From Polyangiales bacterium (GTDB lineage Bacteria; Myxococcota_A; Polyangia; Polyangiales; CBDCBC01), in NCBI GenBank assembly GCA_965214225.1, contig OZ243942.1:3106035-3170034 (forward strand): DNA of 64,000 bases, read 5' to 3'. How positions within the stretch are numbered: position 1 is the first letter of the stretch; each line of letters opens with the position of its first letter. The position numbers and the translations under genes were made by a program. Shown here piece after piece: positions 8,891 to 58,130 of the stretch. The notes below the pieces were generated by a model. That model had not been told where the DNA came from. It saw nothing but the letters and a program-made list of their open reading frames with translations, and did not search any database.

Positions 8891-9006
8891 TTCGCTCCCA
8901 CGATGGCGATTCTGAACGGGCGGCGTTGGGGTGGCGCTGCCTCTGCAGGGTCGGAGGCGCCATCGTGGGTAGTTGTGTCGCCGGGACCGCCGAGAGCTCA
9001 GGCGCT

Positions 9007-9024
9007 TGTAAAGTGATCTTTACA
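9007..9024. promoter_or_regulatory. AT-rich palindrome TGTAAAG-tgat-CTTTACA (site 1 of 4)
   Basis: Perfect 7+7 inverted repeat with a 4-bp spacer, about 120 bp upstream of the 7805-8890 gene. The same motif recurs at 37084, 45315 and 45408. Confidence 0.5.
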
Positions 9025-9067
9025 CCGCCGACGATCCCTGTGGCCTCTTCGTGAGAAACGCTGAGAA

Positions 9068-9153
9068 AAGGGGACGCGTGTCAACCTTTTCAACCGTCGG
9101 AGTCGTGGCTGACTATCACTGTGACGGTTGACAAGGTTGACACGCGTCCCCTT
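9068..9153. repeat. long imperfect inverted repeat (31-bp arms, 1 mismatch, 24-nt loop)
   Basis: AAGGGGACGCGTGTCAACCTTTTCAACCGTC ... GACGGTTGACAAGGTTGACACGCGTCCCCTT, read directly. It lies next to the transposase-gene relic. Confidence 0.8.
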
Positions 9154-9171
9154 GCCCCGCCTTCACAGTGC

Positions 9172-9247
9172 GGTCTCTAAGCCAGCTGCGGTCACGCTCG
9201 GCTCGGCGTGAAGCATCGGGTGCCAGCGAGGTGTACCAGCTGTGTGG
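9172..9247 (-). pseudogene. 76-bp relic copy of the 3' part of the Y1 transposase gene
   Basis: 9181-9247 matches 5765-5831 with one mismatch (GCCAGCTGCGGT[C/A]ACGCTCGGCTCGGCGTGAAGCATCGGGTGCCAGCGAGGTGTACCAGCTGTGTGG). Similarity is lost on both sides. Confidence 0.75.
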
Positions 9248-9452
9248 AGCGCGTGGGATTCAGTGTGCTGATGAGGAAAGTCGAGTGCACGCGTAGGGTA
9301 TCTGGAAAAGGAGGAGGCGTAGCGACGTCTTCCTGACGGACATCCGACAACAAGCTGACGGAAGCTCGTGCGTCTCGAAGCCGAAATGTCAGATGTTCGC
9401 TAGGAAATCGCACATCCTTTGGTGGCACAGAGCCTGCAATGATGCAGCATTC

Positions 9453-9959
9453 ATGAACCTTTCGCGCACCATCGCAATCCTGTTCCTCCTGCAGCTGAGC
9501 CACGTTTCCGCAGCGAGCGCTAGCCAGTTGCGGAAGCGCAGCAGAAACCAGCTCCGTGCCATTGTAGAAGCACCCATTGAAGCGGCAGCTTCTCCGTGTT
9601 CAGTTAACGAACTGCATCTTCCAAGGTCGGCGAGCGTGCCGCCTGGCGAACTGGCCGTCGACGTTGATCTGAACGCACCCTTGCGCGGAAACCGGGCCAC
9701 CGCGAGGCTGCAACTGACGGGTTCTAAGGGGTCTATGGGAATGACCGTGCCGGTGTCGCTGACCTGCCCGCCTCCCGTGCTGGCTGCGGGTGCTGGTGTC
9801 AGAATCGTGGCTAAATCCGGTCTGGTGCGCGCTTCCGTTCCCGGTAAGGCGCTGCAAGCAGGACGCGTGGGGCAGCTGGTGCGCGTGCGCAACACCGTCA
9901 CACACGCGACCATGAGTGGACGCGTGGTGGATGGGCAGACGGTCGAGGTGATTCGATGA
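9453..9959 (+). CDS. flgA: flagellar basal-body P-ring formation chaperone FlgA
   Basis: Signal peptide MNLSRTIAILFLLQLSHVSAASA. SAF-like C-terminus (GKALQAGRVGQLVRVRN..T...SGRVVDGQTVEV). Its stop overlaps the flgH start (ATGA). Context is flgH/flgI. Confidence 0.75.
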   Translation: MNLSRTIAILFLLQLSHVSAASASQLRKRSRNQLRAIVEAPIEAAASPCSVNELHLPRSASVPPGELAVDVDLNAPLRGNRATARLQLTGSKGSMGMTVPVSLTCPPPVLAAGAGVRIVAKSGLVRASVPGKALQAGRVGQLVRVRNTVTHATMSGRVVDGQTVEVIR

Positions 9960-10636
9960 GACCTATAATCGCAGCACTTCTTCTGATGGTTGTAGGGTGT
10001 GCCGAATACACGCCACCACCCAAGGCGCCGAAGTCGCGCAAGTACGAGCATGGAAAGTACGACAGCACGCAGCCAACCTCGGACGGGTCGCTCTGGCAGG
10101 ATTCGGCCAGGGGGCTGTTTGCCGACTTCCGCGGCACCCGCGTAGGCGACCTAGTCACCATCCTGGTGGACGAGTCACCGGAGGCTCAAGGCAACGCCGG
10201 AACGGAGATGGACCGCAACTCGGAAGTCTCCGCTGGTGTTCCGAGCTTCTTCGGATTGACCCAGGCGATGAAGAGCGCCTACCCAGACATCGAACCGGAA
10301 GAGCTGTTCAAGGTGATGAGCACCGGGAGCTTTGACGGCACCGGGCAGACCAAGCGTGGGAGCCGCGTGCGTTCACCGATCTCCGTGCGGGTGAAGCAGA
10401 CGATGCCGAACGGTGATCTCTTTATCGAAGGAAATAAGACGCTGCTAGTCAACGACGAGGAGCTGCGCATCTACATCTCCGGCGTCATCCGACCCGAAGA
10501 CATCCAGACCGACAACACCGTCAACTCCAGCCGCATTGCGGACGCAGAAGTGGAGTTTACCGGTCGCGGCGTGTTGACAGACAACCAGCGTCAGGGGTGG
10601 CTGACCCGCATCATCAGTTCAATCAACCCGTTCTAG
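9956..10636 (+). CDS. flgH: flagellar L-ring lipoprotein FlgH
   Basis: Lipobox LLMVVGCAEY. FlgH-typical SLW....R.LF.D.RA..VGDLVTI, and NGDL.I.G.K....N.E...I..SG.+RP.DI. Confidence 0.9.
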   Translation: MRPIIAALLLMVVGCAEYTPPPKAPKSRKYEHGKYDSTQPTSDGSLWQDSARGLFADFRGTRVGDLVTILVDESPEAQGNAGTEMDRNSEVSAGVPSFFGLTQAMKSAYPDIEPEELFKVMSTGSFDGTGQTKRGSRVRSPISVRVKQTMPNGDLFIEGNKTLLVNDEELRIYISGVIRPEDIQTDNTVNSSRIADAEVEFTGRGVLTDNQRQGWLTRIISSINPF

Positions 10637-10644
10637 GAGGTTTT

Positions 10645-11760
10645 GTGAGGCATTTGAGGCGTGCATGTTTGCTTTTAGCCGCTTTCGGGTTGGCCTGGAC
10701 CGCTCAGTCAGCGGACGCAGCCCGCATTGAAGAGCTGTGCGACGTCAAAGGCGTCCGCAGCAACCAGCTAATTGGCTACGGCCTTGTGGTTGGGCTCAAC
10801 AACACCGGCGACACCGGGCAAGCGCGCTTTACGGTGCAGAGCACAGCAGCCATGCTTCGGCGTCTCGGCGCAACCATCGACCCGCGCACCATTCGCACAC
10901 GCAACGCTGCGGCGGTGATGGTGACTGCCACGTTGCCGGGTGCTGTTCAGCCAGGCACGCGCATCGACGTCGTGGTCTCTTCATTGGGTAATGCGCGCAG
11001 CTTGCTTGGCGGCACGCTGCTGCAAACGCCGCTCTATGCGGCGGATCGACGCGTCTACGCGGTGGCGCAGGGTCCGCTGCTCATCGGCGGCTACTCTGCA
11101 TCCGGTCGTACCGGTTCGAGTGTCCAGCGTAACCATACGACAACAGCCCGTGTTCCACAGGGCGCCATTGTCGAGCGCGACGTTCCTACGGTTGCCCTTG
11201 CAAAGCAAAAGTCCATCGTGCTGACGCTGAGAGAACCATCCTTTGTGACGGCACAGCGTATTGCAGAAGCTATCAACACCTCGCTCGGAGATGGCGCTGC
11301 AGCGGCCGTGAGCGCTGGCTCCGTGAGGATGAATCCGCCGCAGAAGTTCCGTGGCGACCCCGTAGGACTTCTAGCGACGGTGCAGCTACTGGAGGTTGAG
11401 CCAGATACCCCCGTAAGGGTGGTCATCGATGAACGCACTGGCACAGTCGCGCTTGGCGCGGGTGTGCGGATTTCTGAAGTGGCCGTTGCGCACGGGGGCC
11501 TCACGGTCGAAATCAATGAATCAGTCGCTGTCTCTCAGCCGCAGGCGCAGTTCGGGCAGGGGTCGACCGCGGTGGTGCCGCAATCGGACGTCCGTGCCAC
11601 TTCGGAGCAAGGCAACGTAAGGCTTGTGAAGACCACTGCCGAGCTTTCCGATGTGGTGAATGCTCTCAATGCGCTCGGGGCACGTCCGCGGGACCTGGTC
11701 GGTATCTTTCAGGCGTTGCGCACAGCGGGTGCACTGCGCGCCGACATCGAGGTCCAATGA
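10645..11760 (+). CDS. flgI: flagellar P-ring protein FlgI
   Basis: GTG at 10645, 5 nt after an AGGAGG. Signal peptide followed by ARIEELCDVKGVRSNQLIGYGLVVGLNNTGD, which is a diagnostic FlgI N-terminus. C-terminus ...LNALGARPRDLVGIFQALRTAGALRADIEVQ. Confidence 0.92.
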   Translation: MRHLRRACLLLAAFGLAWTAQSADAARIEELCDVKGVRSNQLIGYGLVVGLNNTGDTGQARFTVQSTAAMLRRLGATIDPRTIRTRNAAAVMVTATLPGAVQPGTRIDVVVSSLGNARSLLGGTLLQTPLYAADRRVYAVAQGPLLIGGYSASGRTGSSVQRNHTTTARVPQGAIVERDVPTVALAKQKSIVLTLREPSFVTAQRIAEAINTSLGDGAAAAVSAGSVRMNPPQKFRGDPVGLLATVQLLEVEPDTPVRVVIDERTGTVALGAGVRISEVAVAHGGLTVEINESVAVSQPQAQFGQGSTAVVPQSDVRATSEQGNVRLVKTTAELSDVVNALNALGARPRDLVGIFQALRTAGALRADIEVQ

Positions 11761-11875
11761 TCACCACTGTCAGTGCACACCATGCTTGTGTCGCGTCTTC
11801 AGGCATTGCGCGCACAGGGAGCATGCTCGGCACGCCACGTGCGCCTCACTGCAGAAGGGAGCGAGGCAAGTACAT

Positions 11876-11927
11876 CTGCGCCACAGCCACCTGCGCCACA
11901 GCCACCTGCGCCACAGCCACCTGCGCC
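11876..11927. repeat. 15-bp tandem repeat x3.4 (CTGCGCCACAGCCAC)
   Basis: Read directly. It lies in the unusually long (316 bp) flgI-flgJ spacer. Confidence 0.8.
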
Positions 11928-12076
11928 CCAAGCGGGTTATCATTGGGCGTGGTCAGGCGTGGCAGGTCGTCCGGCCGAGTTTTCCGCTTAGGTCCTCTTC
12001 AAGAGTCCGTAGATGGACGTCACATACCTGCGCAGGCTGCGGAACGACCGGAGCTGCACGTGGAGGAGCAGGCCGG

Positions 12077-13210
12077 ATGACGTTACCTGTTGCACCTTTG
12101 CCAAGTGATGAGTCTCAGCGGGCCGAGCGGGCGGGTGCGCAGTCGCAACGTCAGGCGCAGAAGGCCGCGAAGGAGTTTGAAACCCTGTTTGTGCAGCAGA
12201 TGATGAAAGTCATGCGCACGTCAATGACAAGAGGGATGAGCGAATCGGCGATGGGGGGATCACAGTACATGCAGATGTTTGACGCAGCGCTCGCCAACTC
12301 GATCACCGAAACCGGGGCCCTCGATTTGCAGCGCATCTTTACCGCCGGCTTTGATGACGAAGACGCTCCGGTCAAGACCGTGCATGCCATGGCCCCTCTG
12401 CGCGCAGGGGCCATGTATGGCGTGATCGCCCCTTCCTCAAGCGGGCCTCCTCTGCGCGGAGCCACAGGCGCGATGCAGCGGGCTGCGGCCCAACTTATCG
12501 GTGTGGGAGGGGCGGAGCGATGGGGTCGAGAGGGTCGCCTTTTGCCCCAGGACCTCGCCAGCAACTACGCCGCTCGGTTGCAGGACGGTAAGGCTAAGTT
12601 CAACGTCAACGACGCGAGTGGTTACCAGGGGTACTATAAGTGTAACTTGTTCGCCTTCGAGCTCGCCCGTCGAGCAGGCTTTCAAGTGCCAGTTGTAGGT
12701 CGCAAGCGTGGCTTTGGCTATCCGGTTTCCAGCGCTGTAGCCCAAGATGCTGCGAGCAACCGGCAGGTCAGAGGCAACTGGGGCCGAGTTGTGACCGGTG
12801 AAGGTGCGAGTTCATTAGACGCTGGACTTCTGCAAGGAAGTCGGGCGTTCATGCTTGCAGCAAGCGCCTCTGACCCAAAGCGTGCAGGCCACATGGCGGT
12901 GGTGGAGAGGGTGCGAGAGGTCAAACACGACAACCAAGGCAAGATCAAGCAAATCGTGTTCGATGGCTGGGAGGCGAGGTCGAAAGGTGCGCGGCACCTA
13001 CAGCAGCGCACATGGAATCGCAGCGATACCCATGGCGGACACGACGTTCGGGGGGGCTTTGGGAACATCGAAGTCATTGAGTTAAAGCCGGCACAACGCG
13101 GCAAAGTGCAGGAGGTCGCGCTCTCCAAACCCGGCTTGCCATCCAAACATGACATTTTTGCCTCAAGTTCTCCGCTCCATCGTCCGATTGCTAGAAGGGA
13201 GGGAACATGA
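12077..13210 (+). CDS. flgJ: FlgJ-like protein: rod-binding domain fused to a putative Cys/His (papain-fold, NlpC/P60- or CHAP-like) domain
   Basis: ATG 12077 is preceded by GGAGGAG. The N-terminal AAKEFETLFVQQMMKVMRTSM is the FlgJ rod-binding signature. The C-terminal half has a candidate Cys (GYYKCNLFAFELARRAG) and His (RAGHMAVVERV) pair. The 5' extension of the track ORF (11660-12076) overlaps flgI and a repeat, and is not credited. Confidence 0.75.
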   Translation: MTLPVAPLPSDESQRAERAGAQSQRQAQKAAKEFETLFVQQMMKVMRTSMTRGMSESAMGGSQYMQMFDAALANSITETGALDLQRIFTAGFDDEDAPVKTVHAMAPLRAGAMYGVIAPSSSGPPLRGATGAMQRAAAQLIGVGGAERWGREGRLLPQDLASNYAARLQDGKAKFNVNDASGYQGYYKCNLFAFELARRAGFQVPVVGRKRGFGYPVSSAVAQDAASNRQVRGNWGRVVTGEGASSLDAGLLQGSRAFMLAASASDPKRAGHMAVVERVREVKHDNQGKIKQIVFDGWEARSKGARHLQQRTWNRSDTHGGHDVRGGFGNIEVIELKPAQRGKVQEVALSKPGLPSKHDIFASSSPLHRPIARREGT

Positions 13211-13470
13211 AGATCGACGGGAGCTCAAGGTCTCCATATATTCGCCAGCAATCTCTGGCGGGGCAGGCTTCAAAGGCCAGACCAGACGCCACAAGGGGCG
13301 AGAGCGTGCGGCTGTCCGGCGAGGCGGACCTTCTGCAAAACGCTCGTCAGCCTGAGCGTACGGATCGGCAAAGGGTGGAGAAGCTTCGACTCTCCCTTAG
13401 CGAAGGCACCTTCGAGGTCGATCCGTACAAGATTGCTGACGCGATGTTGCGTGAAGAGCGGCTGGCATAG
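13207..13470 (+). CDS. flgM: anti-sigma-28 factor FlgM
   Basis: 87 aa. C-terminal VEKLRLSLSEGTFEVDPYKIADAML is typical of FlgM. ATGA overlap with flgJ. Position before flgN-flgK-flgL. Confidence 0.8.
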   Translation: MKIDGSSRSPYIRQQSLAGQASKARPDATRGESVRLSGEADLLQNARQPERTDRQRVEKLRLSLSEGTFEVDPYKIADAMLREERLA

Positions 13471-13626
13471 TGTTGCGTGAAGAGCGGCTGGCATGGTGTT
13501 GCGTGAAGAGCGGCTGGCATAATGTTGCGTGAAGAGCGGCTGGCATGGTGTTGCGTGAAGAGCGGCTGGCATGGTGTTGCGTGAAGAGCGGCTGGCATGG
13601 TGTTGCGTGAAGAGCGGCTGGCACAG
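13445..13626. repeat. 26-bp tandem repeat x7 (TGTTGCGTGAAGAGCGGCTGGCAnnG) beginning inside flgM
   Basis: Unit starts at 13445, 13471, 13497, 13523, 13549, 13575 and 13601. Unit 1 encodes the last 8 codons plus the TAG stop of flgM. Units differ only in the last 2-3 nt (TAG/TGG/TAA/TGG/TGG/TGG/CAG). Confidence 0.95.
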
Positions 13627-13674
13627 TGCAGGCCCGTCACCAGCGGCATCTGCCATGGAGGAGCGAAGACGAAC

Positions 13675-13986
13675 ATGAACACTCAACTTGAGAAAGATCT
13701 CTACTGCTTGCTGGAACAGGAGCGCGAAGCGGCAAGAAGCGCCGATGTCGGTCAGCTTCTTAGCCTCCAGGACCAGAAAAGCACGCTGATGGCGCAGTTG
13801 CTAGATGGCGAGGGTGAACCTCAGCTGGATCCAGCCACAACGCAGCTGGCTACATCAAACGTCAAGCTCATCCGCCACCTGTGCAGTTGCCTACGGGGTC
13901 TGACTGCCGGCGGTGACCCCGATGTGTACTCTGCCTCTGGAGAGGCTCGCTCCATGCGTCCCTCGTACGTCAAGGGCGCACTGTGA
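13675..13986 (+). CDS. flgN: FlgN-like flagellar export chaperone
   Basis: ATG 13675 is preceded by GGAGGAG. About 103 aa, helical, Q/L-rich (LLEQEREAARSADVGQLLSLQDQKSTLMAQL). Sits between flgM and flgK. The longer track start (13597) lies inside the repeat array. Confidence 0.6.
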   Translation: MNTQLEKDLYCLLEQEREAARSADVGQLLSLQDQKSTLMAQLLDGEGEPQLDPATTQLATSNVKLIRHLCSCLRGLTAGGDPDVYSASGEARSMRPSYVKGAL

Positions 13987-15374
13987 CAGCGCTGTTTGGC
14001 CTTCTTCGTACGGGCGCGAGTGGAATGAAAGCCCACTCTTACTCGCTCAACCTGTCAGCCAATAACGTCGCAAACGCTTCGACACCGGGATATGTTCGGC
14101 GAAGTACCGTGCTGCAGGAGCAATGGCCACCGCCGCCCATTAGCGGCGGCGTGCAGGTGACTGGAACACGTCGCCACGTGGACCCCTACCTTGAGAAGCG
14201 GATGCTTTCAGCTGAATCGATGAAGGGCCGTGCGGAAGCAGGTGTGGGAGGTTTGGGCATACTCGACAACGTTTTTGCCGAGGGTCCGGGCCAACTGGGT
14301 GAAGCCATTGCGCACTTTGAGACAGCACTCTCCAGCCTGGCCTCGCAGCCAAACGACGGCGGGGTGCGCTCCGATGTGCTGGGAAGGGCTGAGCAGCTGG
14401 CCCAGGCCTTCCGCAACACGGCTGATTCGGTCGCTCAAGCTCGGGATGACCTGAACCAACGCGTGGTTGAAACTGTAGGCGATGTCAATCTGCGGCTAGA
14501 GCAGATCGGCGATCTCAATATTCGCATTGCGAACATAGAGGGCACCGGAGGCGACGCAAGCTCGATGCGCGACCAGCGAGAGCAACTGGTGCGGGAAGTC
14601 GCCGAACGCGTGCCGGTCAGTGCGCTCGAAAATCAGCGAGGCGGCATCAACCTTGTGCTCACGGGCGGAGGGACGCTGGTCACCGCAGAAGGTTCGGTGG
14701 CGGTCCTGGGGTTGGATAACGACGCATCAGGCGACACAACGGTCACCTTCACTGAGGCTGGCGGTAAGGTAGAAGTGACCGACCGGCTAACCAGCGGAAG
14801 CATTGGAGGCTATCTGGCGGCACGTGACGGTGCGTTGGCAGACGCCCGCGATGGCTTAGACAGTCTCGCGCACGATATTGCCACGGCGTACAACGATGTG
14901 CACAGCGCAGGCTTTGACCTAGACGGCAACACGGGAAGTAACCTGTTCGCTCCTTCAGCGACAGCTGCGGGTGCCGCAATCACCATGCGTGTATCCGACG
15001 ACGTCAAAGGCAACCCCGATGCGGTTGCTGCAGCCACAGATGCAGCTCAGGTTCCTGGCGACAACCGCAACGCGCTTGCCCTTCAAGCGCTGAGCTCAGC
15101 GAGCATTGCTGGAGGCGGAAGTGCAACCGCCTCAGGGGCCATGGCGTCGATGACCGGATCAGCGGGGCGCTCAATCTCTTCGTTTAAAGACGATGGTAAT
15201 TACGCAGACGCCGTGCATCAGCAGCTGACGGAGATGCGGGAGGCAGTCTCCGGTGTATCTATGGACGAGGAGATGACCAAGATTACCTTCTATCAACGCG
15301 CCTATGAAGCATCAATACAGGTTTTAAAGACCGCTGATCAAATGCTGGCCGAACTAATCAACATGAGGAGATAG
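13983..15374 (+). CDS. flgK: flagellar hook-associated protein 1 FlgK
   Basis: N-terminus LFGLLRTGASGMKAHSYSLNLSANNVANASTPGYVRR. C-terminus EEMTKITFYQRAYEASIQVLKTADQMLAELINM. GTG start overlaps the flgN stop. Confidence 0.92.
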   Translation: MTALFGLLRTGASGMKAHSYSLNLSANNVANASTPGYVRRSTVLQEQWPPPPISGGVQVTGTRRHVDPYLEKRMLSAESMKGRAEAGVGGLGILDNVFAEGPGQLGEAIAHFETALSSLASQPNDGGVRSDVLGRAEQLAQAFRNTADSVAQARDDLNQRVVETVGDVNLRLEQIGDLNIRIANIEGTGGDASSMRDQREQLVREVAERVPVSALENQRGGINLVLTGGGTLVTAEGSVAVLGLDNDASGDTTVTFTEAGGKVEVTDRLTSGSIGGYLAARDGALADARDGLDSLAHDIATAYNDVHSAGFDLDGNTGSNLFAPSATAAGAAITMRVSDDVKGNPDAVAAATDAAQVPGDNRNALALQALSSASIAGGGSATASGAMASMTGSAGRSISSFKDDGNYADAVHQQLTEMREAVSGVSMDEEMTKITFYQRAYEASIQVLKTADQMLAELINMRR

Positions 15375-15376
15375 AG

Positions 15377-16252
15377 ATGCGAGTGACTGAGGGTATGCTG
15401 TCCAACCTTGCGCGTGAGCGCATCACCCGAGCTCGCTCTACTGTTTATGAGGCGCAGCAGGTGGCCGGCACTGGGATTCGCGCCGGCAAGCCTTCGGATG
15501 ACCCTACAGCAGTGGCAATCGGTGCACGCGCGTCTCATCAGAAGTCCCTTGCCGTCTCACGCATGCGAACTGCCGAAGCAGGCCTCGGAAGCTTGCAGTT
15601 TCAGGACGGCACCCTCGCGGACGTGGGAACATTGCTCTCTAGGGCCAAGGAGCTTGCGCTGCAAGGGTCCGGAGGCGCCGCTTCAGATTCTGACCGCGCC
15701 GTGCTTGTTGAAGAACTCAATGCCGTGCGTGAACAGGTCCGCTCGCTCGCGAATGCTCGATTTGACGGGGAATACATCTTCTCTGGGTATGCCACTGGGA
15801 CGCAGCCATTCGCCGCCGACGGCACCTACCAGGGCGGCACAGACACAGTTGAGCTGGAGGTGGCGGCAGGTGTGAGAGTGGCCAAGGGAGTGACTGGCGA
15901 AGCTGCTCTTACCCTCGGGGGAGGTGACAATATCTTCACTGCCCTTGACGCTCTTCATACCGCCTTGAGCAACAACGACCCGACAGCCGCACAGGACACA
16001 GTTGGTCAAATGGACGATGCCATTCGTCAAGTGGCCAAGTCGCGTGCCACGGTGGGAGGCCACATGCAGAGCTTCCAGACGGCGTTTGCAGCGGCCGAGC
16101 GGGTGTACGACTACGCTTTTGAACAGCGTTCGCAGCTCATCGAAGCCGATCCATTTGAAGCGTACACCGACCTCAGCCAGGCTCTTCAAGCTCTCCAGGC
16201 GGCGTCACAACTTGCGCAGTTGTTGCCGCGTGAGGGGCTCCTAGGAGGATAA
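15377..16252 (+). CDS. flgL: flagellar hook-associated protein 3 FlgL
   Basis: MRVTEGML..., PSDDPTAV, and a flagellin-like C-terminal helix (DPFEAYTDLSQALQALQAASQLAQ). 291 aa. Confidence 0.88.
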   Translation: MRVTEGMLSNLARERITRARSTVYEAQQVAGTGIRAGKPSDDPTAVAIGARASHQKSLAVSRMRTAEAGLGSLQFQDGTLADVGTLLSRAKELALQGSGGAASDSDRAVLVEELNAVREQVRSLANARFDGEYIFSGYATGTQPFAADGTYQGGTDTVELEVAAGVRVAKGVTGEAALTLGGGDNIFTALDALHTALSNNDPTAAQDTVGQMDDAIRQVAKSRATVGGHMQSFQTAFAAAERVYDYAFEQRSQLIEADPFEAYTDLSQALQALQAASQLAQLLPREGLLGG

Positions 16253-16258
16253 TAGCTT

Positions 16259-16915
16259 ATGCTGACACTAAGCCGCCGTGTAGGAGAGCGCGTACTCATC
16301 GGCTCTACCATTGAAATTGAGGTTGTAAGTGTGACGGGAGGTCGGGTGCGTCTCGGCATTCGCGCCCCTAGGGCCTACCCGATTCAACGGGGCGAGCTCA
16401 TGGAGAAGATCGAGGTCGAGACAAAGCGAGCGGCGATCGAGCGAGCTTCTGATCCTAGTGAAACTGGACCTGAAATCGTGTTTTGTGAGGGTATTCTTGG
16501 CCTGAGCGGGCACGACACGTTCAAGCTCTACGACATTTCTGCGCGAAGCCCGTTCCGCATGCTGGAAGCCACTTCGGCAGCGGGTATCTGTCTTCTGGTC
16601 GTGCCCGTACGCGAGGTGTACGAGGCATACCCAGAGGAAGAAGCTCGTTCACTTGCCGACTTGGATCAAGGCGAAGAGGCGGTAGTATTTGCCATCGCCA
16701 GTGCACCAGCTAACGGAGAGCCATTGACCGTCAACCTCTCTGCGCCGCTCGTAGTGAGTCTAGAGAGTTTTCGCGGAAAGCAGGTCGTGCTGGACAGAGA
16801 GGAGCTGCAGCTGCGGCATCCTCTTGCACTCACGGCGCGTCCTTCAGTGCCACCTCCGCCCTCTCCAACAGCGGCCCCCGACCTTCGTCTCTGCGAAGAC
16901 GCAGCGTGCTCATAG
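16259..16915 (+). CDS. csrA: CsrA-FliW fusion protein (single uninterrupted ORF)
   Basis: Residues 1-55 (MLTLSRRVGERVLIGSTIEIEVVSVTGGRVRLGIRAPRAYPIQRGELMEKI) form a full CsrA fold signature. Residues ~60-205 (EIVFCEGILGLSGHDTFKL...SPFRMLEA...LLVVPV...AVVFAI....EPLTVNLSAPLVVSLESFRGKQVVLDREELQLRHPL) match FliW. No stop or frame change lies between them. Confidence 0.8.
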   Translation: MLTLSRRVGERVLIGSTIEIEVVSVTGGRVRLGIRAPRAYPIQRGELMEKIEVETKRAAIERASDPSETGPEIVFCEGILGLSGHDTFKLYDISARSPFRMLEATSAAGICLLVVPVREVYEAYPEEEARSLADLDQGEEAVVFAIASAPANGEPLTVNLSAPLVVSLESFRGKQVVLDREELQLRHPLALTARPSVPPPPSPTAAPDLRLCEDAACS

Positions 16916-17421
16916 GGGCAGGCACGCCGTTGCCGGAAGTGAAGGGCTTCGGCCGTGACACCCATCGCCGCCCAGCACGCGTTGATCATGCGAACGTGCT
17001 CCCACTCGATTGCCTTACTAGCTGGCTACGCACCTCTTTTCCGGCGGGCTGCCGCACGCGCAGAGGTTCTGCCGGCGGCGGTTGGGATGATATCCAGCCT
17101 CCACCTGCGGTAGAAGCATCTGACGTAGCCCTCCGTCCAAGACGGGAAACGAGCAGAGGTGTTGATTCTCTCTACCGAAGCAGACCACAATAGGACCATA
17201 CCTCTCACTCGGGAGCGCGGACCACCCTCCGCGGTTAGTTTACCACGTCTACTCACACCGACTTAGCGCCACAGGCATTAGTAGGAAGAGGACACTGTCT
17301 TCCTCTACGTGTTGAGGCGAGGTGCACCGTGGTAGTCTTTGTCTTAGAACCCGAAATGATCAGAGGGTTTAGCGGGAATCCTGCAGGGCGCGTGTTCCTC
17401 AGGGCGAGTGAGTAGAGGAGC

Positions 17422-25521: not shown

Positions 25522-25533
25522 GTGCCGAGCCTA

Positions 25534-25643
25534 GTGCAGATTCACGAGAAGAACAGTGCAGATTCACGAGAAGAACAGTGCAGATTCACGAGAAGAACAG
25601 TGCAGATTCACGAGAAGAACAGTGCAGATTCACGAGAAGAACA
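25534..25643. repeat. 22-bp tandem repeat x5 (GTGCAGATTCACGAGAAGAACA)
   Basis: Five identical copies starting 13 bp upstream of the tamB start codon. Confidence 0.95.
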
Positions 25644-25744
25644 GCCACGACAGCTACGAAGTAGCGAGTGCTGCGGGTTCAAACGGTGGGGCTAGAACGG
25701 GTGCACGATCAGACTGACAAGAGGGTACATACGTGACGATTTTT

Positions 25745-35779: not shown

Positions 35780-35855
<76 letters not shown>

Positions 35856-35856
<1 letters not shown>

Positions 35857-36736
35857 TGCTTGAGGATGGGGCGCATCCTCTGCGCGAGAAGGCCGGATTA
35901 GATGTTGATTATCAGGCTGACGCCTGAGGGGTCCGGCCCCCACAGAATGAGTAGAGCTGGCATGCTTGAGGATGGGGCGCATCCTCTGCGCGAGAAGGCC
36001 GGATTAGATGTTGATTATCAGGCTGACGCCTGAGGGGTCCGGCCCCCACAGAATGAGTAGAGCTGGCATGCTTGAGGATGGGGCGCATCCTCTGCGCGAG
36101 AAGGCCGGATTAGATGTTGATTATCAGGCTGACGCCTGAGGGGTCCGGCCCCCACAGAATGAGTAGAGCTGGCATGCTTGAGGATGGGGCGCATCCTCTG
36201 CGCGAGAAGGCCGGATTAGATGTTGATTATCAGGCTGACGCCTGAGGGGTCCGGCCCCCACAGAATGAGTAGAGCTGGCATGCTTGAGGATGGGGCGCAT
36301 CCTCTGCGCGAGAAGGCCGGATTAGATGTTGATTATCAGGCTGACGCCTGAGGGGTCCGGCCCCCACAGAATGAGTAGAGCTGGCATGCTTGAGGATGGG
36401 GCGCATCCTCTGCGCGAGAAGGCCGGATTAGATGTTGATTATCAGGCTGACGCCTGAGGGGTCCGGCCCCCACAGAATGAGTAGAGCTGGCATGCTTGAG
36501 GATGGGGCGCATCCTCTGCGCGAGAAGGCCGGATTAGATGTTGATTATCAGGCTGACGCCTGAGGGGTCCGGCCCCCACAGAATGAGTAGAGCTGGCATG
36601 CTTGAGGATGGGGCGCATCCTCTGCGCGAGAAGGCCGGATTAGATGTTGATTATCAGGCTGACGCCTGAGGGGTCCGGCCCCCACAGAATGAGTAGAGCT
36701 GGCATGCTTGAGGATGGGGCGCATCCTCTGCGCGAG
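35856..36736. repeat. 106-bp tandem repeat x8.3, abutting the 3' end of tRNA-fMet
   Basis: Unit starts at 35856, 35962, 36068, 36174, 36280, 36386, 36492, 36598 and 36704 (the last is 33 bp). Copies are identical by eye. The unit contains TCCGGCCCCCACA (compare tRNA 3' TCCGGCCCCCGCA) and three perfect hairpins. Confidence 0.97.
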
Positions 36737-44758: not shown

Positions 44759-45214
44759 AGCCACCTCGCGGCTTACCTCCTCGGAAAAAATCCTCAAATA
44801 CGTTGAGTATTCTGCGGTTGTTTCCTGCGGGGGCGCTCGCGACGTGACTCATTTGACAGGCATTGGTGCTGGAGCCACCTCGCGGCTTACCTCCTCGGAA
44901 AAAATCCTCAAATACGTTGAGTATTCTGCGGTTATTTCCTGCGGGGGCGCTCGCGACGCGACTCATTTGACAGGCATTGGTGCCGGAGCCACCTCGCGGC
45001 TAACCTCCTCGGAAAAAATCCTCAAATACGTTGAGTATTCTGCGGTTATTTCCTGCGGGGGCGCTCGCGACGCGACTCATTTGACAGGCATTGGTGCCGG
45101 AGCCACCTCGCGGCTAACCTCCTCGGAAAAAATCCTCAAATACGTTGAGTATTCTGCGGTTATTTCCTGCGGGGGCGCTCGCGACGCGACTCATTTGACA
45201 GGCATTGGTGCTGG
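44759..45214. repeat. 114-bp tandem repeat x4
   Basis: Unit starts at 44759, 44873, 44987 and 45101. Copies differ by about 1-4 substitutions. Each unit contains a TTGACA hexamer and a small hairpin CTCAA-atacg-TTGAG. The in-frame track ORF 44844-45305 is a by-product of 114 = 38x3. Confidence 0.95.
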
Positions 45215-45300
45215 AGGCACTGGCAGTGATCGGACGTGGCACCAGCTGAAGGTCGCTCCCGCAGGTCGCAGCTCCTTGCGCAGCCGACCGTCGCACATCT

Positions 45301-57800: not shown

Positions 57801-58050
57801 GCTCTGTAAGTTACGTTACGTAACGTAACTTGGCAAGAGGAGTGGCACGAGATTTCTACCGTAAGTGGGGTCAGGCCACCGAGCGCGTTACGCTGAAGAT
57901 GCGAAGGCGCATGTAATAAAACTCTATCCCGGTCGCAGAACTTCGCGCGGCGGCTCCTCAGAGCCAGGTCTACGGTGGAGGCCGCTTCCGACAGCCGTCG
58001 CCGAAGCTTGCTCCAGTCATGTGTACGCAGCAAAGCCTGCTGACACTCAG

Positions 58051-58130
58051 CCGGTCCCGTACTGAGGCCGGTCCCGTACTGAGGCCGGTCCCGTACTGAG
58101 GCCGGTCCCGTACTGAGGCCGGTCCCGTGT
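58051..58130. repeat. 17-bp tandem repeat x4.6 (CCGGTCCCGTACTGAGG)
   Basis: Unit starts at 58051, 58068, 58085, 58102 and 58119 (partial). Lies in the spacer between the sigma-factor gene and erpA. Confidence 0.9.

Follow-up and report, generated by a model that had tools for sequence, protein, structure and literature searches.

The gene for the anti-sigma-28 factor FlgM in this Polyangiales genome ends inside a tandem array, and the question raised by the locus is whether that array acts as a switch on FlgM or on the coupling of flgM to flgN, or is simply an amplification of the 3' end of the gene. The first of these possibilities was the one preferred in the first-pass annotation, whereas the second was offered there as a fallback. 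Considered here are the window, namely the whole 64,000-nucleotide stretch of contig OZ243942.1 to which all coordinates below refer unless otherwise stated, the 3.67-Mb genome, the corresponding loci of relatives, and assembled read sets. The explanation that best accounts for the observations, with a probability of roughly 75%, is that the array represents a recently formed bacterial minisatellite, which arose by replication slippage or by microhomology-mediated tandem duplication, rather than a dedicated switch.

Architecture of the Tandem Array

By direct reading of the sequence, by Tandem Repeats Finder (TRF), and by a pattern search, seven 26-bp units were found arranged head to tail on the + strand from 13445 to 13626, precisely as the first-pass annotation had placed them. 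The units begin at positions 13445, 13471, 13497, 13523, 13549, 13575, and 13601, with unit 7 ending at 13626. The TRF call itself extends from 13445 to 13623 (period 26, 6.9 copies, 96% matches, 0 indels, score 337). All seven units share an invariant 23-nt core, TGTTGCGTGAAGAGCGGCTGGCA, for which the pattern search returned seven exact copies within the array and none in 100 shuffles. With up to three mismatches allowed, this core occurs at the flgM locus only across the 3.67-Mb genome. The units differ solely in their closing triplets, which from unit 1 to unit 7 read TAG, TGG, TAA, TGG, TGG, TGG, and CAG, the other 23 x 7 positions being identical. The array and the reading frames within it are as follows.

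13445 to 13628, + strand: tandem array of seven 26-bp units plus a 2-nt TG microhomology (sequence, TRF, pattern search, unitig depths)
13468 to 13470, + strand: TAG, the working flgM stop codon and last triplet of unit 1 (sequence, ORF list)
13493 to 13522, + strand: mini-ORF for MVLREERLA, 9 aa, opened by the ATG of unit 2 and closed by the TAA of unit 3 (sequence)
13545 to 13610, + strand: mini-ORF of 21 aa, running from the ATG of unit 4 to a TGA within unit 7 (sequence)
13571 to 13678, + strand: predicted ORF of 35 aa, opening with the unit 5 ATG and closing with a TGA that overlaps the flgN ATG (ATGA) (ORF list)
13597 to 13674, + strand: putative extension of flgN by 26 N-terminal codons, opening at the unit 6 ATG (open reading frame)
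13629 to 13674, + strand: rest of the flgM-flgN spacer, non-repetitive and containing GGAGGAG at 13657 to 13663 (sequence)

Unit 1 consists of two-thirds of a Met codon, seven complete flgM codons (LREERLA), and the TAG stop. The earlier statement that it supplies the end of flgM and its stop codon thus holds, although the eight codons counted there become seven plus two bases of the Met codon. Likewise, the variation is indeed restricted to the stop triplet, but it affects three positions rather than two, the additional one being the first base in unit 7, where T is replaced by C. Four of the units end in CATGG and thereby provide ATG codons at 13493, 13545, 13571, and 13597. The mini-ORFs reported previously were in this manner confirmed, as was the in-frame connection of the last ATG with flgN (ORF 13597 to 13986). 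Indeed, this frame runs open into flgN only because unit 7 closes with CAG and not with TAG. Immediately following unit 7, a TG at 13627 to 13628 repeats the first two bases of the unit, and such a 2-nt microhomology at the end of an array is as expected for slippage.

Presence of the Array in the Read Sets

The locus was present in two runs of one sample, referred to here as X1 and X2, in the form of Logan contigs, in which rare alleles are not visible. In X2, the unitig corresponding to the TGG junction has a depth of 99.3 as compared to 24.5 and 28.8 for the flanks; the resulting ratio is 3.7, and the value calculated for four TGG junctions is 3.95. A unitig spanning two successive TGG triplets has a depth of 59.2 and a ratio of 2.2, as compared to an expected value of 2; this ratio would be approximately 4 were the TAA unit a TGG unit. 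In X1, where unitigs containing the TAA unit also occur, the TGG-junction unitig has a ratio of 3.9. As expected, the array interrupts the de Bruijn unitigs, all of which match the assembly with no differences. No variant unitigs were observed in X1 or X2, and the depths fit the seven-unit allele, with the proviso that contigs drop rare variants. The assembled allele is the dominant allele in the sample. A contig with the TAA unit (window positions 13500 to 13567) is absent in the deeper run, X2, and present in the shallow one, X1, and the missing contig is probably the result of bubble removal by the contig builder rather than of a different allele.

These data bear on the suggestion that the array, or its variant triplets, might be an artefact of assembly or consensus calling, absent from the cells themselves. 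The assembly is of the metagenome type, the locus is present only in runs of one sample, which is probably the assembly's own source, and X2 lacks a contig carrying the TAA unit. Against this, every junction type is covered by error-free unitigs in X1, and the depth ratios of 3.7 to 3.9 and 2.2 match the values of 3.95 and 2 predicted by the assembled order of the units. An artefact is hardly credible.

The Late-Flagellar Operon and its Wide Junction

The flgM gene lies in a late-flagellar operon on the + strand that comprises flgA-like, flgH, flgI, flgJ-like, flgM, flgN-like, flgK, flgL, and csrA-fliW genes. The three genes of immediate concern are listed below.

13207 to 13470, + strand: flgM, anti-sigma-28 factor, 87 aa (Pfam PF04316, E 1.7e-10, 41.4 bits versus a cut-off of 25)
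13675 to 13986, + strand: flgN-like chaperone gene, 103 aa (location shared with relatives, between flgM and flgK; N-terminal alignment; length in relative L024)
13983 to 15374, + strand: flgK, hook-associated protein 1 (Pfam FlgK_D1, E 5.7e-54)

The start of flgM overlaps the stop of the flgJ-like gene (ATGA), with a GGGAGGG sequence positioned 4 nt upstream of it, and the stop of the flgN-like gene overlaps the GTG of flgK (GTGA). There is a single FlgM match in the genome and no second flgM copy. A gene for a FliA-type sigma factor is also present (211 bits, above cut-off). With respect to Pfam FlgN (PF05130), the flgN-like product scores 16.9 bits (E 0.009), which is below the gathering cut-off of 30.5; its homologues in three of the four relatives described below give weak matches to the same family, the best with an E-value of 4.5e-5. 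The assignment was made because of the conserved position between flgM and flgK and the alignment with the relatives.

The junctions of the operon (window positions 9393 to 16915) measure, in order, -4, -40, -32, -4, +204, -4, +2, and +6 nt, where the two larger overlaps (-40 and -32) depend on the chosen start calls. The flgM-flgN junction is the sole wide one, and 156 of its 204 nt are contributed by the six extra units of the array. Elsewhere in the operon, a perfect 15-bp x 3.5 array, CTGCGCCACAGCCAC, is located at 11876 to 11927, either ahead of the flgJ-like gene or within its 5' portion, and reads as HLRHS repeats in ORF 11660 to 13210. This ORF (516 aa) has no Pfam match at E <= 0.1, though its product displays a rod-binding-like stretch.

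Four relatives were available for comparison, three from the species-level genome set (L009, L013, and L015) and one from a protein search (L024). The gene order flgJ-like, flgM, flgN, flgK is maintained in all four, and the flgM-flgN gaps are +5, +2, -1, and +8 nt. The array at this junction is absent in each of them. The FlgM proteins of the relatives end in ...MLREEL, ...MMEEES, ...MLDEER, and ...MLREER, and that studied here ends in ...MLREERLA, two residues longer. The tail of FlgM is the part that binds sigma-28. As predicted from the gene, FlgM is intact, with a C-terminus of native length that includes the sigma-binding region. These relatives are fairly distant: the best of the species-level set shows a FlgK identity of 48%, a search of 5.8 billion proteins for closer FlgM relatives yielded only the protein itself and one 42% match, and scans with FlgK of genome_contigs and metagenome_contigs gave no matches.

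In native gene pairs, coupling by termination and reinitiation falls steeply with distance and is nearly gone at 20 to 40 nt (PMC10666635). The flgM-flgN spacings of the relatives are within the range that predicts coupling, and at +204 nt coupling would therefore be lost at this junction, so that flgN is presumably translated here independently of flgM.

The Start Site of FlgN

In the relatives, the Shine-Dalgarno sequence of flgN (GAGGAG) sits in the last codons of flgM. It is homologous to the GAAGAG of the array unit, which is positioned 8 nt before each array ATG. The tail of the 16S rRNA in this genome is canonical, ...CACCUCCUUUCU (CCUCC), and the array ATGs have GAAGAG alone upstream, without any 4-nt Shine-Dalgarno core. 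By comparison, the ATG at 13675 is preceded at a distance of 11 to 13 nt by GGAGGAG (13657 to 13663). For FlgN, the N-termini from L013 (MGTQELLQEL...) and L015 can be aligned with the sequence MNTQLEKDL... that begins at 13675, and the called flgN gene of L024 encodes 103 aa, equal to that of flgN here when read from 13675. FlgN thus most probably starts at 13675 with its own GGAGGAG.

Alternatively, translation of FlgN might in reality begin at 13597 and yield a protein of 129 aa, the first residues of which, MVLREERLA, would copy the sigma-28-binding tail of FlgM. The frame is open thanks to the TGG of unit 6 and the CAG of unit 7, and the FlgN of one relative, L009, is longer at the N-terminus. 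Nothing corresponding to the extension exists in L013, L015, or L024, however, no Shine-Dalgarno core lies upstream of 13597, and it is 13675 that has GGAGGAG and that yields the 103 aa of L024. Translation from 13597 is highly improbable, and the extension has probably come about by chance through the TGG and CAG variants.

Tandem Arrays Throughout the Genome

By TRF, 1,208 non-overlapping tandem arrays were identified in the 3.67 Mb of the genome. Among these, 408 have a period of 9 to 60 and at least three copies, with units that are unrelated, and 132 have at least four copies at 95% identity or better. The commonest periods are 15 to 18. For arrays with periods of 9 to 60 and at least three copies, the density is 11.1 per 100 kb, as compared to 3.1 per 100 kb in the relative having the best FlgK match (160 kb; G005:C8:1-160000, L025-L032) and 1.4 per 100 kb in G001, the only other family member (73 kb sampled). 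The tendency to form arrays may be older than the genus, as the density is also raised in the relative with the best FlgK match (3.1 versus 1.4). Loss of repair genes, whether for mismatch repair or for single-strand exonucleases, was considered as the cause of the repeat richness and rejected: mutS, mutL, recJ, and xseA are all present in the genome, above their cut-offs and without internal stops. Within the window there are two other perfect arrays (22 bp x 5.1 at 25533 to 25644 and 17 bp x 4.6 at 58050 to 58128) and others with longer units (106 bp x 8.3 at 35855 to 36736 and 114 bp x 4.1 at 44759 to 45220).

The distribution of the 408 arrays relative to genes was determined with a crude home-made caller based on codon usage, which gave 2,801 genes and on which the in-gene and stop-overlap counts depend. 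Intergenic arrays number 194, where random placement would give 53. Of the 226 arrays whose period is a multiple of three, 138 lie within predicted genes, as opposed to 11 of the 182 having another period. At gene boundaries, 48 arrays overlap a predicted stop codon, where approximately 23 would be expected by random placement, whereas those overlapping a start codon (17) match expectation (18). In 27 of 37 indel-free arrays that overlap a stop, the real stop lies in unit 1 and the later units repeat it. The array at flgM is the second highest-scoring member of this stop-overlapping class. The simplest reading of these counts is that tandem duplications arise genome-wide and that selection removes those that break a reading frame.

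A probable course of events at flgM can be proposed on this basis. The last 26 nt of flgM, including the TAG stop, would have been duplicated, and the copies laid downstream in the flgM-flgN spacer. Unit 1 would continue to encode the native C-terminus of FlgM, and the later units would form an untranslated spacer. Because the duplicated segment carries the stop codon, FlgM would remain unchanged; the duplication would cost nothing at the protein level and would escape the selection that acts against frame-breaking arrays in coding sequence. Translation of flgN would begin at its own start, 13675, with its own GGAGGAG, and the main physical effect of the array would be the widening of the flgM-flgN junction to 204 nt. 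The array shows the attributes of a minisatellite in that it is built from head-to-tail, near-identical units within the range of approximately 10 to 100 bp and in that the unit is locus-specific. The fallback of the first-pass annotation, a neutral amplification of the 3' end, is supported by the membership of the array in the class of 48 stop-overlapping arrays and among the 408 minisatellites, the native C-terminus of FlgM, and the FlgN start at 13675.

Several other elements were sought in the array and its surroundings. An RNA element or attenuator was rejected: no Rfam family matches the array region at E <= 1, the region folds less stably than its shuffles (z = +3.1), and no + strand terminator is predicted there. 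There is no sigma-28-type promoter in the array, a scan of 9000 to 17000 having produced just two weak matches elsewhere. Decayed older units in the remaining 48-nt spacer were likewise dismissed, as 13627 to 13680 scores 14 against a trimer of the unit, a value that is not significant, at least that score having been reached by 217 of 2000 shuffles and by 302 of 1720 windows from the genome. A literature search on tandem repeats at flgM found nothing relevant.

Variation in the Stop Triplet

All three variable positions among the 7 x 26 positions of the array lie in the copied stop triplet. The chance of three hits in the named triplet is (3/26)^3, or approximately 0.0015, and it is approximately 0.01 for any three adjacent columns. 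Each of the variants TGG, TAA, and CAG is one transition removed from TAG. An ancestral TAG is for this reason most parsimonious, and this fits an origin of the array from the native stop. Such clustering is not predicted by neutrality, and it counts against the explanation favored here, as does the fact that the TGG and CAG variants together create an ATG and an open frame into flgN.

Two general causes for the clustering were examined and set aside. For decay of, or selection at, copied stop triplets throughout the genome there is no clear excess, 14 of 111 columns being variable in such triplets as compared to 48 of 523 elsewhere, and the other stop-carrying arrays mostly repeat the stop unchanged. 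Mutagenesis specific to unit junctions fails as a general process as well: in the 47 arrays with two to four variable columns, these columns are spread evenly along the units, and in none is there clustering at p <= 0.05. If a TGG unit spread while selection retained a stop in unit 1, at most one of the three differences would be explained. The clustering is left as a moderately improbable coincidence that was spotted after the fact.

Switch, Relay, or Neutral Spacer

The consequences of exchange between unit 1 and the later units were enumerated for crossovers 5' of the triplet. Replacement of unit 1 by unit 2, 4, or 5 adds 12 aa to FlgM, and replacement by unit 3, with its TAA, leaves FlgM unchanged. 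Replacement by unit 6 adds 26 aa, with termination at the TGA in the ATGA overlap with the flgN start. Replacement by unit 7 produces a 207-aa FlgM-FlgN fusion, which is in frame because 6 x 26 = 156 nt, or 52 codons. The earlier assertion that any event involving unit 1 would alter FlgM is therefore correct only for events in which the triplet is replaced, and even then one of the six outcomes, that with unit 3, is silent. Gain or loss among units 2 to 7 alters neither FlgM nor FlgN, which is not the placement seen in contingency loci. Known contingency tracts have units of 1 to 8 nt placed such that each step shifts the frame.

Seen in this light, a contingency switch, in which slippage or unequal recombination of unit 1 with one of the later units would replace the flgM stop often enough to be useful and thereby vary sigma-28 control or flagellar gene dosage among the cells of a population, is quite unlikely. 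The sequence does permit alleles for FlgM + 12 aa, FlgM + 26 aa, and the 207-aa fusion, and the variation of the array is confined to the stop triplet. Most slippage events, however, would fall among units 2 to 7 and leave FlgM untouched, no variant unitig appears in X1 or X2 at depths that fit the seven-unit allele (contigs drop rare variants), and the steps of the known tracts are short and every one changes the frame. Moreover, this array is but 1 of 48 that overlap stop codons next to unrelated genes, so a flagellar-specific design is needless. The slippage- or recombination-based switch preferred in the first-pass annotation thus found no support. About equally unlikely is that the array serves as a functional spacer with relay ORFs, in which ORF 13571 to 13678 would hand ribosomes on to flgN and in that way make up for the loss of its coupling to flgM. 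That ORF overlaps the flgN ATG by 4 nt, the GAAGAG that lies 8 nt before the array ATGs is homologous to the flgN Shine-Dalgarno sequence GAGGAG of the relatives, and there is precedent in the role proposed for the ORFs inside mycobacterial MIRUs (PMC12548453). On the other hand, GAAGAG does not contain any 4-nt Shine-Dalgarno core, flgN has its own GGAGGAG, and the ATGs fall in all three frames, such that one per frame follows by arithmetic. A tunable junction in the flagellar operon might also be envisaged, whereby rare recombination of unit 1 with later units would give native FlgM, FlgM+12, FlgM+26 with ATGA coupling, or the FlgM-FlgN fusion, and the restriction of variation to the stop triplet would reflect selection on this series or on the relay ORFs. 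Such a junction is very unlikely; if it were real, sigma-28 control in an uncultured, flagellated, Myxococcota-like bacterium would be subject to a contingency device built from a minisatellite.

For the neutral minisatellite, which remains the preferred explanation, the array is by itself of little consequence, being one more minisatellite with both neighboring proteins intact. It does provide a clear example of why frame-breaking tandem duplications survive at the 3' ends of genes. It also offers a natural example of a translationally tight flagellar operon opened up at one junction, from -1 to +8 nt in the relatives to +204 nt. Were the array unstable, it would offer a simple strain-typing marker for an uncultured lineage and would allow a test of whether the FlgM/FlgN stoichiometry tolerates uncoupling.

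Comparison with Known Repeat Systems

In Campylobacter jejuni, homopolymeric tracts phase-vary flagellar regulators. The array at flgM resembles such simple-sequence contingency loci in that a repeat tract lies at a flagellar regulatory gene and has a frame-shifting period (26 = 2 mod 3). It differs from them in the length of its unit (26 nt versus 1 to 8 nt), in its location after the stop, where ordinary gain or loss is silent, and in the absence of observed heterogeneity in the contigs of the one sample.

The MIRUs are intercistronic repeats of operons, the internal ORFs of which overlap the stop or start codons of the neighboring genes by 4 nt and are thought to preserve coupling (PMC12548453). 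The similarity lies in the position of the repeat within an intercistronic gap and in the predicted ORF 13571 to 13678, which overlaps the flgN ATG by ATGA. Whereas the MIRUs constitute a dispersed family of 40 to 100 bp found at many loci, the 26-bp unit is derived from flgM and is present at a single locus.

The closest counterparts are within the genome itself. In the other stop-carrying arrays, such as that of 23 bp x 9 at C1:2991450, unit 1 likewise holds the last codons and the stop, which are repeated in later units, and in most cases the period is not divisible by three, as at flgM. The array at flgM is distinguished from them in that the stop triplet is its only variable part and in that it lies inside an operon whose other junctions range from -40 to +6 nt.

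Variable-number tandem repeat (VNTR), or minisatellite, loci of bacteria serve for MLVA typing, for example in Yersinia pestis and Burkholderia pseudomallei. Shared with these loci are the head-to-tail, near-identical, locus-specific units of 10 to 30 bp, the placement at or beside the ends of genes, and a presumed origin by slippage. Copy-number polymorphism defines VNTRs, whereas the array described here is known from one assembled allele, and its host has far more such loci than is usual, 11 per 100 kb as compared to 1.4 to 3.1 in relatives. The array at flgM is a further case of a known kind, the bacterial minisatellite, and is ordinary for so repeat-rich a genome.
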